A stretch of DNA of 64,000 nucleotides from a virus (IMGVR_UViG_3300042549_004104:96001-160000), one strand, 5' to 3'. Shown: positions 45,578-54,672, numbered from the stretch's first letter. Notes: a model not told the origin generated them from the sequence alone. Numbers and translations: made by a program.

Positions 45578-47074
45578 ATGAGTAAAGAAAATATGAATTA
45601 TATAGGAATAAGTGCCGGTTTTCACGATGCGGCACTTTCAGTTGTGGGAGATGGTAAAATTTTATTTGCTGGCCACGGTGAACGGTACACAGGTGTAAAA
45701 TGTGATAAAGAAATACAATCTAGTATTGTTACTGATGCACTATCATATATCAATGGTGATTTTGAATTACACTATTATGAAAGACCTTGGGTAAAGTTTC
45801 TAAGACAAATTTACACAGGAGAAAATTATAATATATTCAATATCAATCCAAAAAATGGATTGAGCAAAAATGCATATGATCTTTTAGAAAAAAAGAAAAT
45901 ACATACACATGGTCATCATTTGAGTCATGCGGCAGCTGGATTTCAAACTAGTATATTTAAAGAAGCAACGGTATTAGTAATAGATGCGATTGGTGAATTA
46001 GATACTATTAGTATTTGGGATGCACGATATAACAATAAGGGTAAAGCAGTTTACAAAAAATTGTATAGCAAAAAATACCCTAATAGTTTAGGGTTATTTT
46101 ATAGTGCATTAACCGAAAGAGTAGGTTTAAAACCCAACGAAGAAGAATATATCACAATGGGTATGGCTGCGTATGGAACTAATATGCACTACACACAGAT
46201 GTATGAAACTTTGGTTCAAGATAGTTACGATATTGAGTTTAAAGAAAATTTACACATTGGATTGCCAGAAGATTTTCTACTTAATGCTAGTAATGAAGAT
46301 TTAGCATGTAGTGGGCAATTGTTACTTGAAGGACTATTGACTAATGTGTTAAGTCGTGCTAAAATATTAGGTCGCAGTAAAAATTTAGTTTATGGAGGTG
46401 GTGTAGCATTAAATTGCTTAGCCAATAGATTACTTGGTAAATATTTTGACAATATTTGGATTATGCCTAATCCTGGTGACGCTGGTAGTAGCCTTGGTGC
46501 AGCCCTTCTTGGCTATGGCTATCCTGTCAATTATGCTGATAGTTTTCTTGGGTATAACATACCAGGTCCTTACCCTGTTGATAATTTGCTTAATAATTTA
46601 CTCACTGATAAAATTGTGGGTGTGGCATCAGGAAGAGCAGAGTTTGGTCCGAGAGCACTTGGAAACAGGAGTTTGTTGGCTGATCCGAGAGGAAAAGAAA
46701 TCAAAGATAAAGTAAATGAAATTAAAAAGAGACAAAAGTTTAGACCATTTGCACCTGTTATTTTAGAGGAACACGTGCATAACTATTTTATGATGCCACT
46801 AAATTGGCGTAATAGCAAATATATGCAAGTAGTAGCAAAATGCAAGAATCCAGAAAGATTTCCTGCTATAGTACACGCAGATGGAACTAGTAGAGTTCAA
46901 ACAGTTAGTAAAGATGGTAGTGGTATACGTGAATTACTTGAGAACTGGTTTAAGTTGACAGGCTGTCCCATGTTGTTAAACACAAGTTTAAACATACGTG
47001 GAGAGCCAATGGTAAATACACGTGCAGATGCTGATAGATTTCAACAGTTATACAATATTAAAGTTTTAAGCTAA
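45578..47074 (+). CDS. Carbamoyltransferase, NodU/CmcH family
   Basis: FHDAA, HH.SHAA, GGVALNC, GDAG, EFGPRALGNRS, RPFAP, LLNTSLN.RGEP. Confidence 0.92.
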   Translation: MSKENMNYIGISAGFHDAALSVVGDGKILFAGHGERYTGVKCDKEIQSSIVTDALSYINGDFELHYYERPWVKFLRQIYTGENYNIFNINPKNGLSKNAYDLLEKKKIHTHGHHLSHAAAGFQTSIFKEATVLVIDAIGELDTISIWDARYNNKGKAVYKKLYSKKYPNSLGLFYSALTERVGLKPNEEEYITMGMAAYGTNMHYTQMYETLVQDSYDIEFKENLHIGLPEDFLLNASNEDLACSGQLLLEGLLTNVLSRAKILGRSKNLVYGGGVALNCLANRLLGKYFDNIWIMPNPGDAGSSLGAALLGYGYPVNYADSFLGYNIPGPYPVDNLLNNLLTDKIVGVASGRAEFGPRALGNRSLLADPRGKEIKDKVNEIKKRQKFRPFAPVILEEHVHNYFMMPLNWRNSKYMQVVAKCKNPERFPAIVHADGTSRVQTVSKDGSGIRELLENWFKLTGCPMLLNTSLNIRGEPMVNTRADADRFQQLYNIKVLS

Positions 47075-49419
47075 TGATAACAACGGAAGAACTACAGAGA
47101 AGATTTGATTTATTTGTTCAGGGTTATTGGGAAATACCAGATGGGTTAGATACAACTAACTTTGATTTTAATTGGAAACCTGAACCATACGATAGGCCTT
47201 ATATACATCAGTTTGGTACTCAACATCAAAAAACCGGCGGACCAAGATATATTATTCCAGAAAATGAAGGAGTTAAATATCAAAATTTTCAACGTGCAAT
47301 TAAATTACCTGATATAAACAATAGATGTTGGAGACCATTAGTAAACAATTGCATAATTGATTATAGTTGGCATCCTGATGACACCGACCCTCCGTTCATT
47401 TATGTATTTGGCAATCAATGGTATGATTCTCATATTATGCCCACATACCAATATAAGGTAAAAGGTGCAACAGATAAAAAATATATTATTGATGTTAAAG
47501 CAACATTATCACATAGTAAAAATAATTGGGAAATACCTAATGACATTGATGACAGCATATTTGATTATAGTTGGGTTCCTAACCCGCATGATCCGCCATT
47601 TAAATATGAATTTGGCACACAATGGCAAAAGACAGGTGGTCCAAAATATATTGTTGAAGGTGCAACAGAAACAAAATATGTTGATACATTAAAAGTAATT
47701 AAATTGCCGGAGATGCGTAATTGGCGTATTCTTGAAGAAATAGATGCTACTAAATTTGATTTTAGTTGGCATCCAGATAGTACTGAGCCACCCATGATGT
47801 ATGAATTTGGAACACAATGGCAAAAAGCAGGTGGACCTATTTACGTAACAAAAGGTAGTACACAGAAAAAATATTGCAGTGATCAAATTGCTATTCGTAT
47901 CGCAACAGTAAATAGATGCTATCGCCCACTTGTGTCTAATCTTGAATTTGATTATAGCTGGCACCCCGATCCTAACGATCCTCCATTTATATATGTATTT
48001 GGCAATCAATGGCATCCTCCTGAAATTATGCCCACTTTAGTATACAGAGTTAAAGGTGCTACTAATAAAAAATATGTCAATGAAATAAAAGCTAAATTAA
48101 TTCCTTCGAAGGAACAATGGATTGTGCCTGATGATATTGATGATACTATGTTTGATTATAGTTGGTGTCCTGATCCAACAGAACCTCCTTTTATTTATCA
48201 ATTTGGCACACAATGGCAAAAGACAGGTGGCCCGTCTTTCGTAGTTAAAGGTGCAATTGATGTGAAATACGTTATCGACTTTACTGTTATTAAAAAACCT
48301 AATTTACATAATTGGAGAATTATTGAACCTATAGATCAAAGTACTTTTGATTTTAGTTGGCATCCTGATGACACTGATGGTAATTTTACTTATGTGTTTG
48401 GTAATAAATTTTATTCACCTGAAATTATGCCCACAATTATGTATAAGAATAAAAAGTCAGTCCAAACTAAATTTTTCTATGATATACAAGCTGATTTAAA
48501 TATACCTTCTGTAATTTATGAAGATAGTATTTTTGATAAAGTAATTCAAACTAAATTTGAAACTACATACGTTAGATTTGTGAAAGAGCATTCAGACCTC
48601 AAATTAAATTATATAACTGGTGAAAGAGTTAACACATTATTTCCTAATTATTTGATAGGTAATCAGGCAATCATACACAAAGACGCTAAAAAACATTTAT
48701 ATGATACACTTACTGATTATCCTTGCGTTACACATCAGGCTAATAGTCAAGATACATCATTAGATATTATTTTCTTAAGTAATGGTGAAGCCATAGCAGA
48801 TGAAAATTATGAACATTTGTTGAATATGACTAAAGATAAACCTAATAGAGTTATTAGGATTGATAAAGTGAACGGTAGAGTGGCCAGTCAACATGCGGCT
48901 GCAAATGCAAGCAACACTGAATGGTATTTTTTAGTTAATGGTAAATTGCGAATCAATGAAAATTTTGATTTTAATTGGCAACCCGACATATATATGACAC
49001 GAAAACATTATGTGTTTACAGCTACCAATCCTATCAATAACTTAGAATACGGACATATGGCTATAGTGGCAAATAATAAAAAACTAACACTAGCAACTAT
49101 AGGTAAAGGACTTGATTTTACTATGGATAGTCCTATAAAATCTCTACCCATAAATAGTGGTATTGCTGTGTTCAATAGTAGTCCTTGGGATACATGGAGA
49201 ACAGCATTTAGAGAAGTTATTAAGTTATGTGATAGTAAAGATAAAGAAAGTAAAAATCGCTTGATAATTTGGACAAATATTGCTGAGGGAGATTTTGCCC
49301 AAGAGTGTTTACAGGGAGCCAAAGAGGCTGTAGAATATTATAATCAAGTAAATGGTGACTTTGAAAAGTTGAAATTATCATACGATTGGGATTGGTTATA
49401 CCAAAAGTATAATAAATAA
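47074..49419 (+). CDS. Seven-repeat protein fused to a degenerate GT-A-like domain
   Basis: Seven ~65-aa FDYSWxPD..PP..Y.FG repeats; the C-terminal domain resembles 42073..43020. Confidence 0.6.
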   Translation: MITTEELQRRFDLFVQGYWEIPDGLDTTNFDFNWKPEPYDRPYIHQFGTQHQKTGGPRYIIPENEGVKYQNFQRAIKLPDINNRCWRPLVNNCIIDYSWHPDDTDPPFIYVFGNQWYDSHIMPTYQYKVKGATDKKYIIDVKATLSHSKNNWEIPNDIDDSIFDYSWVPNPHDPPFKYEFGTQWQKTGGPKYIVEGATETKYVDTLKVIKLPEMRNWRILEEIDATKFDFSWHPDSTEPPMMYEFGTQWQKAGGPIYVTKGSTQKKYCSDQIAIRIATVNRCYRPLVSNLEFDYSWHPDPNDPPFIYVFGNQWHPPEIMPTLVYRVKGATNKKYVNEIKAKLIPSKEQWIVPDDIDDTMFDYSWCPDPTEPPFIYQFGTQWQKTGGPSFVVKGAIDVKYVIDFTVIKKPNLHNWRIIEPIDQSTFDFSWHPDDTDGNFTYVFGNKFYSPEIMPTIMYKNKKSVQTKFFYDIQADLNIPSVIYEDSIFDKVIQTKFETTYVRFVKEHSDLKLNYITGERVNTLFPNYLIGNQAIIHKDAKKHLYDTLTDYPCVTHQANSQDTSLDIIFLSNGEAIADENYEHLLNMTKDKPNRVIRIDKVNGRVASQHAAANASNTEWYFLVNGKLRINENFDFNWQPDIYMTRKHYVFTATNPINNLEYGHMAIVANNKKLTLATIGKGLDFTMDSPIKSLPINSGIAVFNSSPWDTWRTAFREVIKLCDSKDKESKNRLIIWTNIAEGDFAQECLQGAKEAVEYYNQVNGDFEKLKLSYDWDWLYQKYNK

Positions 49420-49966: not shown

Positions 49967-50074
49967 ATGTTAGGTTTATGTTTATTTTTAGCATTTTGGG
50001 TAGTATTTGGTATAGGATATCTCACTAGAGATAAATCCAAAGACAAAGAAAAACCTCAACACTTTGGTCACTGA
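49967..50074 (+). CDS. 35-aa membrane peptide
   Basis: AAGGA RBS; MLGLCLFLAFWVVFGIGYLTRDKSK...; TGATG overlap with the next gene. Confidence 0.5.
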   Translation: MLGLCLFLAFWVVFGIGYLTRDKSKDKEKPQHFGH

Positions 50075-50427
50075 TGTCAGATCATCAGTTGGTCTGTTCT
50101 TTGATTAAAACTCAAGAACAAGTTGTTTACGATTACACCAAAAATAAATGCAGTCTTGTATTCACTGTATCTGTGATCAAAAACAAAGTTCGGTCTAAAA
50201 AAATATCCACAGCAGTTTTCAAGTATGATAAGGACAACAAATGGTATCCGCATCACATTGAAGTATACCCTGACTACAAACGAACGGGTGTGGCCACGGT
50301 GATGTACGACATTGTGCAAAGTGAGATTGACGGAGTACTAGTTCCGAGCGATGAACAAAGCGATGCAGCCAAAGAATTTTGGCGTAACAGGTCATTGACA
50401 ACTCGCCTGAATAAATATATACTGTAG
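50074..50427 (+). CDS. GNAT-family acetyltransferase-like protein
   Basis: HIEVYPDYKRTGVAT motif A and QSDAAKEFW motif B. Confidence 0.65.
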   Translation: MSDHQLVCSLIKTQEQVVYDYTKNKCSLVFTVSVIKNKVRSKKISTAVFKYDKDNKWYPHHIEVYPDYKRTGVATVMYDIVQSEIDGVLVPSDEQSDAAKEFWRNRSLTTRLNKYIL

Positions 50428-50830
50428 GTTATTGCTGTATGAAGCAAAGAGAAAAGTGTTCTGGACGGGGGTGCGAATCCCCCCAGGTCCACCATAAGGA
50501 GTTTGTATGTGGCAAAGATTAGTTAATTGGTTGTCCGAAAGTTGGAAAGAAACTGGAGAAGCGGCAACATGGACAGTTGACTGGGTATATGGCGATACAG
50601 ACTGATTATGATGGGCCTGCATAGTTTCGACAGGGCAAGTAGTAACAGAGTGGACAGCACGGGAATGTGAAACCTGTAGGATTGAGGTAACTTTAGTCGC
50701 TATACCCATAGTGTAGAAAGACGAAGCTCGGTCGAAGAAGCAAAAAAAGTAACCGCAAACGACTCACAGTTCGCATTGGCTGCTTGATAAAAGCACCCTA
50801 GGGTAAGACATACCTCGTAACAGAAACTCA
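50424..50830 (+). ncRNA. ssrA: Circularly permuted (two-piece) tmRNA
   Basis: The acceptor piece comes first: T-arm GGGGG-UGCGAAU-CCCCC and CAGGUCC-A-CCA ending at 50494. The coding piece starts GGGCCUG at 50613, pairing 7/7 with the G3-U70 Ala determinant, then UUCGAC. Tag ANDSQFALAA-TGA-TAA at 50755-50790. Late motif at 50411; outer ends approximate. Confidence 0.93.
50507..50605 (+). CDS. 32-aa Trp-rich peptide inside the tmRNA intervening segment
   Basis: TAAGGAG (50495-50501) 5 nt before the ATG; MWQRLVNWLSESWKETGEAATWTVDWVYGDTD-TGA. Confidence 0.6.
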   Translation: MWQRLVNWLSESWKETGEAATWTVDWVYGDTD

Positions 50831-50855
50831 AATAGGCACTTCGGTGCCTATTTTT
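50830..50855 (+). terminator. Intrinsic terminator of the tmRNA transcript
   Basis: ATAGGCAC-TTCG-GTGCCTAT followed by a T-run. Confidence 0.9.
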
Positions 50856-50885
50856 CTAGGTATCCTAATGTATGATATATATTGT

Positions 50886-53661: not shown

Positions 53662-54672
53662 ATGAAACTATCAGCAATTCTAGTGACCTTATTACTGGTC
53701 ACGGGTATCACACAAGCACAGACAATTACAGGGGCAGGCGCGACTTTCCCCTTTCCCATTTATAGTAAGTGGGCTGAAATCTATAGCGAAAAACACGATG
53801 TTCAATTAAATTACCAAAGCATCGGTAGTTCAGGTGGATTACGACAAATAAAAGCTAAGACAGTAACTTTTGGCGCAACAGATGCACCCATGTCAGGTGC
53901 AGAATTAGAAAAAGAAGGATTGGTTCAGTTCCCTGCTATAATCGGTGGCACTGTGCCTATTGTAAATCTACAAGGATTTAAACCAGGTGAATTGAGAATC
54001 ACCGGTCAAATATTAGCAGAAATTTTCTTGGGTGACATATCTAAATGGAACGATGCTAAGATACTAGCTCTCAATCCAGGTAAGGCATTACCAGATCAAA
54101 CTATTACTGTTGTACATCGTGCAGATGGTTCAGGCACTACTTTTAACTGGACTGATTATCTCAGTACAGCAAGTCCACAGTGGTTAGAGCGTGTGGGTCG
54201 TGGAGCCGCTGTAAAATGGCCTGCACCAACTTCTGTTGGTGGTAAGGGCAATGAGGGTGTTGCAGCCAATGTAGCACGTGTCAAAGGTTCTATTGGCTAC
54301 GTTGAATATGCTTATGTGAAGAAAAACAAATTGGTGTTCATGCAAATGCAGAATCGCAATGGTCGTTGGGTATCACCAGATGACACTACATTCGCTGCCG
54401 CGGCTGCTGGTGCTGATTGGTTTAGTATACCTGGAATGGGTCTAAGCATCGTGGATCAAAAGGGAGACGCAGTGTGGCCAGTGACCACTGCCAGTTTTAT
54501 TCTTATGTACAAGGATCCTGCAGACCGACGTCAAAGTGCCGAAGCATTAAAATTCTTTGATTGGGCGTTTAAGAATGGGCAAAAGGCAGCAGTAGATTTG
54601 GACTACGTACCATTGCCAGACACCCTGACTCAACAGATTCGTGACCGTGTTTGGGTACAAATTAAGAAATAA
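53662..54672 (+). CDS. pstS: Phosphate ABC transporter substrate-binding protein
   Basis: Signal peptide, GAGATFP, YQSIGS, FGATD, HRADGSGTT, GKGNEGV, IGYVE. Confidence 0.95.
   Translation: MKLSAILVTLLLVTGITQAQTITGAGATFPFPIYSKWAEIYSEKHDVQLNYQSIGSSGGLRQIKAKTVTFGATDAPMSGAELEKEGLVQFPAIIGGTVPIVNLQGFKPGELRITGQILAEIFLGDISKWNDAKILALNPGKALPDQTITVVHRADGSGTTFNWTDYLSTASPQWLERVGRGAAVKWPAPTSVGGKGNEGVAANVARVKGSIGYVEYAYVKKNKLVFMQMQNRNGRWVSPDDTTFAAAAAGADWFSIPGMGLSIVDQKGDAVWPVTTASFILMYKDPADRRQSAEALKFFDWAFKNGQKAAVDLDYVPLPDTLTQQIRDRVWVQIKK

Follow-up and report, generated by a model that had tools for sequence, protein, structure and literature searches.

Permuted tmRNA precursors are cut into two pieces by tRNA-processing enzymes (PMC11915505, in the part of its text available), and the intervening segment that separates the pieces in the gene is commonly treated as a disposable spacer. 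Can this segment carry a gene of its own? The question arises from a tmRNA locus in a giant freshwater phage (~360 kb, G+C ~33%), for which an original prediction had placed a small protein-coding gene inside the excised part and had proposed that its translation is coupled to tmRNA maturation. The locus lies in a stretch of 64,000 nucleotides, hereafter the window, which corresponds to bases 96001-160000 of a virus record of 359,563 bp (IMGVR_UViG_3300042549_004104) rated complete by CheckV.

The only gene that ARAGORN identified in the window is a permuted tmRNA (50402-50878), whose tag reads ANDSQFALAA followed by two stops. Rfam scored the locus at 104.5 bits for tmRNA_permuted (RF04321, cut-off 47) and 93.8 bits for beta_tmRNA (RF01850, cut-off 84), and the call was confirmed in the whole genome. 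The permuted order is present, with CAGGTCC-A-CCA (to 50494) upstream of GGGCCTG (from 50613), and the alanine-identity pair is found as G3 opposite U70. The positions originally given for the CCA, the Shine-Dalgarno sequence (SD), the spacer, the ORF and G1, together with the 118-nt length of the segment, proved correct to the base (Table 1). Based on the established tRNA-like processing, RNase P is predicted to cut the window precursor between 50612 and 50613. One promoter (50395-50423) and one terminator bracket both the tmRNA and the peptide ORF, and the same promoter boxes are found upstream of the tmRNA in two relatives, L203 and L205.

Table 1. Features of the permuted tmRNA locus, in window coordinates.
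Feature	Position	Strand	Basis or remark
Sigma-70-type promoter, TTGACA-17 nt-TATACT	50395..50423	+	11/12 matches; within the 3' end of the upstream ORF
Acceptor piece: T-arm, 3' acceptor strand CAGGTCC, discriminator A, encoded CCA (50492-50494)	50430..50494	+	ARAGORN, Rfam, sequence
Intervening segment, 118 nt	50495..50612	+	absent from the mature tmRNA by the known processing of the family
Shine-Dalgarno sequence TAAGGAG, its first bases doubling as 5' strand of the closing stem	50495..50501	+	sequence, stem covariation
Spacer TTTGT, 5 nt	50502-50506	+	sequence
Gene for a 32-residue Trp-rich acidic peptide; ATG 50507, stop TGA 50603-50605	50507..50605	+	relatives, codon-position pattern
Leader TTATGAT before G1, pairing with ACCAUAA to form the closing stem (3' strand)	50606..50612	+	fold and covariation
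Coding piece: 5' acceptor strand GGGCCTG, pseudoknot region, tag frame, terminal hairpin	50613..50856	+	ARAGORN, Rfam
Tag reading frame ANDSQFALAA, then two stops	50755..50790	+	ARAGORN; coding part 354-389 of the gene starting at 50402
Terminator-like hairpin (50830-50853), then T run (to 50856)	50830-50856	+	sequence
Two upstream genes: 35-aa membrane peptide (49967-50074) and 117-aa protein (50074-50427)	49967..50427	+	homologues inside tmRNA segments of relatives

Genes neighbouring the locus include those for a carbamoyltransferase, thioredoxin, rubrerythrin, rubredoxin and a PstS-like phosphate-binding protein. The phage has no SmpB of its own and must therefore rely on host factors. Further upstream, at window positions 47074-49419, lies an ORF of 781 residues in which a motif resembling FGTQWQKTGGP(K/R)Y recurs several times; it has no Pfam match. 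A minus-strand ORF of 105 codons (50392-50709), antisense across the tRNA-like part of the tmRNA, is probably spurious and was discarded.

The ORF of 32 codons, MWQRLVNWLSESWKETGEAATWTVDWVYGDTD, would encode a peptide of 3.9 kDa with a pI of 4.16, a net charge of -4.5 and a GRAVY of -0.68. Its five Trp and amphipathic N-terminus, both pointed out originally, were recovered by computation (helical moment ~0.6 over residues 1-14), and AlphaFold2 with a 20-row alignment predicted one helix spanning residues 2-28 (pLDDT 84.8, pTM 0.39). The family is present as a single copy in the phage genome. Searches of the ESM Atlas gave no usable match for the peptide, those of Pfam and PHROGs with this peptide and most other ORFs found in such segments gave nothing below E 0.03, and tblastn of the window peptide and P0007 against 50,697 isolate-phage records gave no match. 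By its GRAVY and charge, the peptide lacks the short, hydrophobic, membrane-spanning character of type I toxins, a hydrophobicity that other occupants of the same position do have, such as the 24-residue TM-A peptides described below.

The argument that this ORF exceeds chance comes from its conservation in relatives and not from the window sequence alone. Relatives of the window peptide (the W family) came from viral and metagenome scans with alignment of the peptide (L203, L205, L206 and L207) and from earlier scans (L062, L156 and L041); L208, another candidate from the metagenome scan, was rejected as a chance match. Frame-breaking changes in homologues, which had been named as the sign that would speak against a gene, are absent from seven of the eight full-length W-family sequences (the window, L062, L205, L206, L207, L156 and L203), and one of these, L062, has an in-frame insertion of 6 nt. 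The eighth does break the frame: L041 equals L206 minus one A in an A-run, a difference that reflects either an assembly error or decay. L156 and L203 stop elsewhere than the window, at a TGA adjoining G1. Across the seven intact DNA sequences, pN/pS was 0.53 in frame versus 2.15 and 0.90 in the shifted frames, the in-frame value being uncorrected and modest with pS near saturation, and the variable sites are distributed 14/16/31 over the three codon positions. Between the window and L062, pN/pS was 0.26. The start and the frame have been kept although the sequences differ at nearly every third codon position.

A profile built from the seven sequences and searched against 1.84 billion cluster representatives matched 22 proteins at E <= 0.001, of which 19 are 29-74 aa long and align nearly end to end; three long repeat proteins were set aside. 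The W-family proteins share the motif MWxxIKxW(F/L)xESWxxxxEAAxWTVDWVxGD and are named only as 'hypothetical protein' in public sources. One of them, P0018, has an N-terminus that is translated T-arm, acceptor and CCA, and a tail that is the translated 5' end of a tmRNA with a different acceptor. For all nine members with known DNA context, the gene is flanked by a CCA and a G1. Searching the viral collection with a context-blind, degenerate DNA pattern of the conserved core revealed no free-standing copy; the five loci matched were two known family members and three chance matches in GC-rich ORFs. Separately, P0005 (324 aa) has six tandem repeats, each beginning MSAAKLWTVDSLNG and matching the core motif of the family, through either chance resemblance or true relation.

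The W family is a diverse set of Trp-rich, acidic peptides of 29-51 residues, predicted to be helical and under protein-level constraint. Judged from these comparisons, the window ORF is very probably a real gene. The segment also folds well as a hairpin, so its nucleotide conservation, above all at the invariant ...GATACAGACTGA 3' end, may in part be at the RNA level.

To what extent is the window typical of phage tmRNAs? A search with a 16-mer that runs from the acceptor end into the SD gave 79 viral contigs, with a permuted tmRNA reported by ARAGORN in 51 and a permuted layout found by our own test in 62. Because this 16-mer contained the SD, we repeated the scan with an SD-blind pattern ending at the CCA. 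An estimated 2400 stretches match this backbone pattern alone, a number that is too high because ordinary tRNA genes can share the acceptor end; we drew 120 loci, many of which are such tRNA genes and 51 of which have the permuted layout. An ATG no more than 16 nt from the CCA, opening an ORF that reaches the segment end, was present in 18 of the 46 unique segments of at least 60 nt, compared to 3.25 expected from dinucleotide shuffles and one in the reverse complement. An SD-like motif occurs within the first 9 nt in 13 of the 18 ORF-bearing segments in this sample versus 2 of 33 ORF-less ones. Among all 114 permuted-layout loci, 71 have an early ATG with an ORF of at least 15 codons, yielding 55 distinct ORFs. 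In phages of this tmRNA lineage, between roughly a third and half of the segments combine an SD, an ATG and an ORF.

These ORFs come from many unrelated families, among them Cys-rich proteins, one-helix membrane peptides and NifU/IscU, and two-gene inserts also occur. The commonest occupants are hydrophobic peptides of 22-26 residues, and two of these families show purifying selection at the amino-acid level: pN/pS was 0.20 in frame (0.95 and 7.0 in shifted frames) for the 24-residue TM-A family with 12 distinct sequences, and 0.16 (0.77 and 2.6) for the 22-residue TM-B family. Pooling 11 independent nearest-neighbour pairs, with 53 synonymous and 35 nonsynonymous differences, gave 0.22 in frame versus 0.90 and 2.25. 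The proposed dN/dS-type comparison favours coding, modestly in the W family at 0.53 and more strongly, at 0.16-0.22, in the TM-A/TM-B slot families. A mixed 23-residue set carries no selection signal (0.63 versus 0.52 and 1.13), the TM-E pair has 2 synonymous versus 9 nonsynonymous changes, and in two small families single pairs carry no information or point in the opposite direction. Larger contents are also found. In L066, a segment of 405 nt is a full-length NifU/IscU gene (Pfam NifU_N, 186 bits, positions 1-124 of 127; PHROG 'NifU-like'); the L153 segment encodes a CxxCxxCC-domain protein, and that of L055 holds two genes within 474 nt. With unrelated genes up to a full-length NifU/IscU in the same place, the idea of a passenger slot for small genes fits well, and the conserved frame, the third-position variation and the genes in related slots all support the central proposal that the removed segment contains a protein-coding gene.

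Thirteen of the 55 distinct ORFs read through G1 into the tmRNA body; the read-through ORFs of L124, L130 and L196, which have no SD, are probably due to chance. Six other loci (L002, L005, L020, L039, L047 and L067) have CCA-TAAGGAG, a conserved ATTGAATAAATACTAG and then an ATG opening genes of 101-152 residues with no family match, in segments of at least 400 nt; in three of these G1 lies beyond the fetched DNA. In L157 and L193, the first 20 nt after the CCA read AAAGGATTTTT-ATC and the frame then stays open, which resembles an ORF-bearing segment except that ATC stands where the ATG would be; this could be a non-ATG start or a decayed start. The tmRNA tag is usually ~10 residues long; in many permuted tmRNAs from phages of this lineage (L003, L010, L021, L037, L040 and others) it has 24-31 residues, as in ANADTFDFSAMSFTGNSVSGKSKVALAA, and these long tags form conserved families.

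The segment behaves as a cassette-like slot in phages of this tmRNA lineage. The exact 37-nt T-arm/acceptor backbone of the window recurs at 10 loci with at least six different contents, and, conversely, the W family is found on at least four tmRNA backbones. Homologues of the two genes directly upstream of the window tmRNA are both inside the L055 segment, and the smaller one is also in that of L143. Bacterial genes of the same tmRNA type have just a short hairpin at this position. A segment-blind backbone pattern applied to bacterial genomes gave 120 loci, including 28 permuted tmRNAs by ARAGORN, and the segment could be defined in 25 of these; 24 segments are 4-52 nt long and one is 100 nt, and none of the 25 has an SD with a segment-filling ORF.

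Among isolate phages, blastn of the window tmRNA region against the same 50,697 records gave no match, and blastn of L003 gave only T-arm/acceptor matches of 50-69 nt. The cultured Pseudomonas phages SM1 (L335, NC_041877.1, ~54041-54461) and UF_RH6 (L334) have an unannotated permuted tmRNA with the tag ANDTSFDVRLAA (ARAGORN), and their segment, ~104 nt long, forms a non-coding hairpin. UF_RH6 also has a hypothetical CDS that overlaps the permuted tmRNA on the other strand.

In the window, the segment folds into one long hairpin, an extension of the acceptor stem (z -3.6 and -3.7), and its inner part has a folding z of -2.1. Inner-segment z-scores give no useful separation between ORF-bearing segments (median -1.07, n=46) and ORF-less ones (-0.20, n=31). 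The hairpin is closed by a stem of ~15 pairs, in which positions 73-87, following the acceptor, pair with positions -1 to -15 before G1. Across 93 unique segments, 53 ORF-bearing and 40 ORF-less, most positions of this stem are paired in 91-100% of the sequences, compensatory pair types are numerous and one C-A mismatch is conserved. The pairing of CAUAA with UUAUG that had been proposed for the window is present in the minimum-energy fold and belongs to this covarying stem. Because compensatory pairing extends across both ORF-bearing and ORF-less segments, the closing stem is to be regarded as an ancient part of the precursor. Where a segment bears an ORF, the SD forms the 5' strand of this stem, mostly by G-U pairs, and the 3' strand is made up of the last codons and the stop, which in about half of the families is a TGA one base before G1.

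This arrangement bears on how the gene might be expressed. By thermodynamic estimate, the probability that the window SD is unpaired is 0.66-0.77 in partial transcripts versus 0.34 once the segment is complete, and the SD would then be partly masked in the folded precursor. Ribosomes would accordingly be expected to load mainly on the growing or unfolded precursor. Folding of the stem, the predicted cut at 50612/50613 and trimming to the CCA would end the message, and peptide output would thus be tied to tmRNA synthesis. Such coupling of peptide synthesis to processing, as originally suggested, is plausible in this model because the SD is itself one strand of the stem that closes the segment. 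Overall, we are fairly confident that the 118-nt segment carries a conserved small protein gene, likely translated from the precursor before the predicted RNase P cleavage and 3' trimming, and one transcript likely serves as both messenger and RNA precursor.

RNA-library contigs offer weak hints at the precursor and its ends. Contigs from four lake or freshwater RNA studies cover both mature pieces, and some are identical to window positions 50428-50485 and 50448-50498. Several start at 50428-50430, near the promoter, and some end at 50494-50498. A 397-nt RNA contig of a relative contains the acceptor end, ~238 other letters and the coding piece, and may represent DNA carry-over. In four RNA runs, the segments of the window and of L003 are without contig cover, which is uninformative either way. 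Each of the 24 RNA runs listed holds only small shares of the stretch. Adapter letters occur directly after the CCA in an RNA contig of a relative (L003 609 and 709) and, in the window, directly before 50620-50624, 7-11 nt inside the coding piece; these junctions suggest sharp RNA ends.

What the peptide does is a separate matter. It might be a partner dedicated to the tmRNA system, synthesized together with the tmRNA by virtue of its position, and might influence trans-translation or the breakdown of tagged proteins by way of SmpB, the ribosome or a protease adaptor, for instance. The W family is seen only within tmRNA segments (the nine members with DNA context, plus P0018 by its translated flanks), it occurs once in this phage genome and is kept on several backbones, and a phage without its own SmpB needs host factors. 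However, the slot houses many unrelated genes, including NifU/IscU and membrane peptides, and position alone is therefore no proof of a tmRNA-linked function. The window peptide has no homology to any known family, and the exclusive location of its relatives, in a small sample, could reflect inheritance or exchange of the segment with its conserved flanks. We consider a dedicated partner unlikely. Our best guess is that the peptide is an accessory phage product made from a strong host-type promoter, and not a dedicated part of trans-translation.

A more elaborate scenario joins several of these elements: the stem would act as an SD/anti-SD switch that permits translation before folding and cleavage, the cleaved and 3'-nibbled trailer would become a non-stop message, its peptide being tagged by the tmRNA freed from that transcript, and the Trp-rich peptide would act on host trans-translation or tag-dependent proteolysis. 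We give this combination a slim chance of being correct.

Alternatively, the act of translation could matter in place of the peptide, with ribosomes opening the stem, timing the processing and, once RNase P has cut and the 3' end has been nibbled, stalling at the trailer end as a built-in tmRNA substrate. The closing stem has the SD in one strand and the stop codon in the other, the stop is in most families a TGA one base before G1, and the 13 of 55 distinct ORFs that cross G1 would lose their stop on cleavage, all of which would suit such a role. Nevertheless, the TM-A, TM-B and W families show purifying selection on their amino-acid sequences, and one slot is occupied by a complete gene for an enzyme scaffold (NifU/IscU), which shows that the products of the slot matter and makes a role for translation alone quite improbable.

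Finally, we disfavour as very improbable the view that the ORF is an untranslated chance by-product of a structural spacer hairpin, since, although the segment folds well, its SD is partly paired and 28 of the 46 SD-blind segments are ORF-less, as is that of cultured Pseudomonas phage SM1, the start, frame and stop are kept despite third-position divergence, indels are in frame, the profile found 19 further family members, and both the ORFs (18 versus 3.25) and the SD accompanying them (13/18 versus 2/33) are enriched.

Returning to the preferred reading, of a small accessory gene probably translated from the tmRNA precursor, the intervening segment is here gene-bearing, and more broadly a widely used, swappable gene slot in aquatic phages. 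The built-in ribosome-binding site of the slot doubles as part of the processing stem, and the locus as a whole is a compact natural design of promoter, RNA scaffold and excisable mini-mRNA. Small phage genes inside an RNA gene would form a class that annotation pipelines would probably overlook. The slot also provides a simple, testable model for competition between RNA processing and translation on one transcript, and one may now ask whether phages link accessory peptides to ribosome rescue.

Several known systems share individual elements of this arrangement. In the dual-function RNAs SgrS/SgrT, RNAIII/delta-haemolysin and SR1/SR1P, one transcript gives both a functional RNA and a small peptide. 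Unlike these RNAs, where the peptide is coded in the mature RNA, the window has its peptide coded in the part that is removed, and each product would derive from its own fragment of the precursor. In the type I toxin mRNAs hok and tisB, the start region is masked by long-range 5'-3' pairing. The window is similar in having a short ORF with an SD sequestered by a distal 3' element, and many occupants in relatives are hydrophobic peptides of 22-26 residues, but the window peptide is hydrophilic and acidic.

Full-text literature searches found no paper describing a coding capacity of this segment, and the available main-text passages of PMC11915505, PMC9004378 and PMC7162821 (huge phages) do not mention one. 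In the partial text of PMC11915505, from which the terms 'ORF' and 'open reading' are absent, the contents reported for permuted-tmRNA intervening segments are a tRNA-Ala gene and a repetitive element (PMC11915505, tmRNA database). These insertions likewise show that the segment tolerates added sequence, but they are an RNA or a repeat in single genomes, whereas the phage slot holds protein genes. The same partial text describes homing-endonuclease ORFs in group I introns of tmRNA, which are similar in placing a protein gene in a part absent from the mature RNA. Unlike such an intron, which is self-splicing and has an ORF for its own mobility, the phage segment would be removed by tRNA-processing enzymes and carries diverse cargo with no mobility enzyme.

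Among phages, 53 two-piece tmRNAs have been reported in phage genomes, mostly aquatic (PMC9004378, from the excerpt available). The OM43 phage Melnitz, described there, is likewise an aquatic phage with a complete permuted ssrA adjoining a host-type promoter, but according to the same excerpt its tmRNA is of the alphaproteobacterial type, unlike the beta type of the window, and within that excerpt the word 'intervening' occurs 0 times and the segment is not discussed. The closest counterpart is the bacterial beta-type two-piece tmRNA (RF01850, RF04321), which the window matches in gene order, the G3-U70 pair, an ANDxxFALAA-type tag, the promoter, the terminal hairpin and the leader-trailer stem. 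The segment sets them apart: in the 25 bacterial genes sampled it is 4-100 nt with no SD or filling ORF, and in the phage it is 118 nt and coding. The locus belongs to the beta-type two-piece tmRNA family and adds to it a coding cassette in the excised segment.
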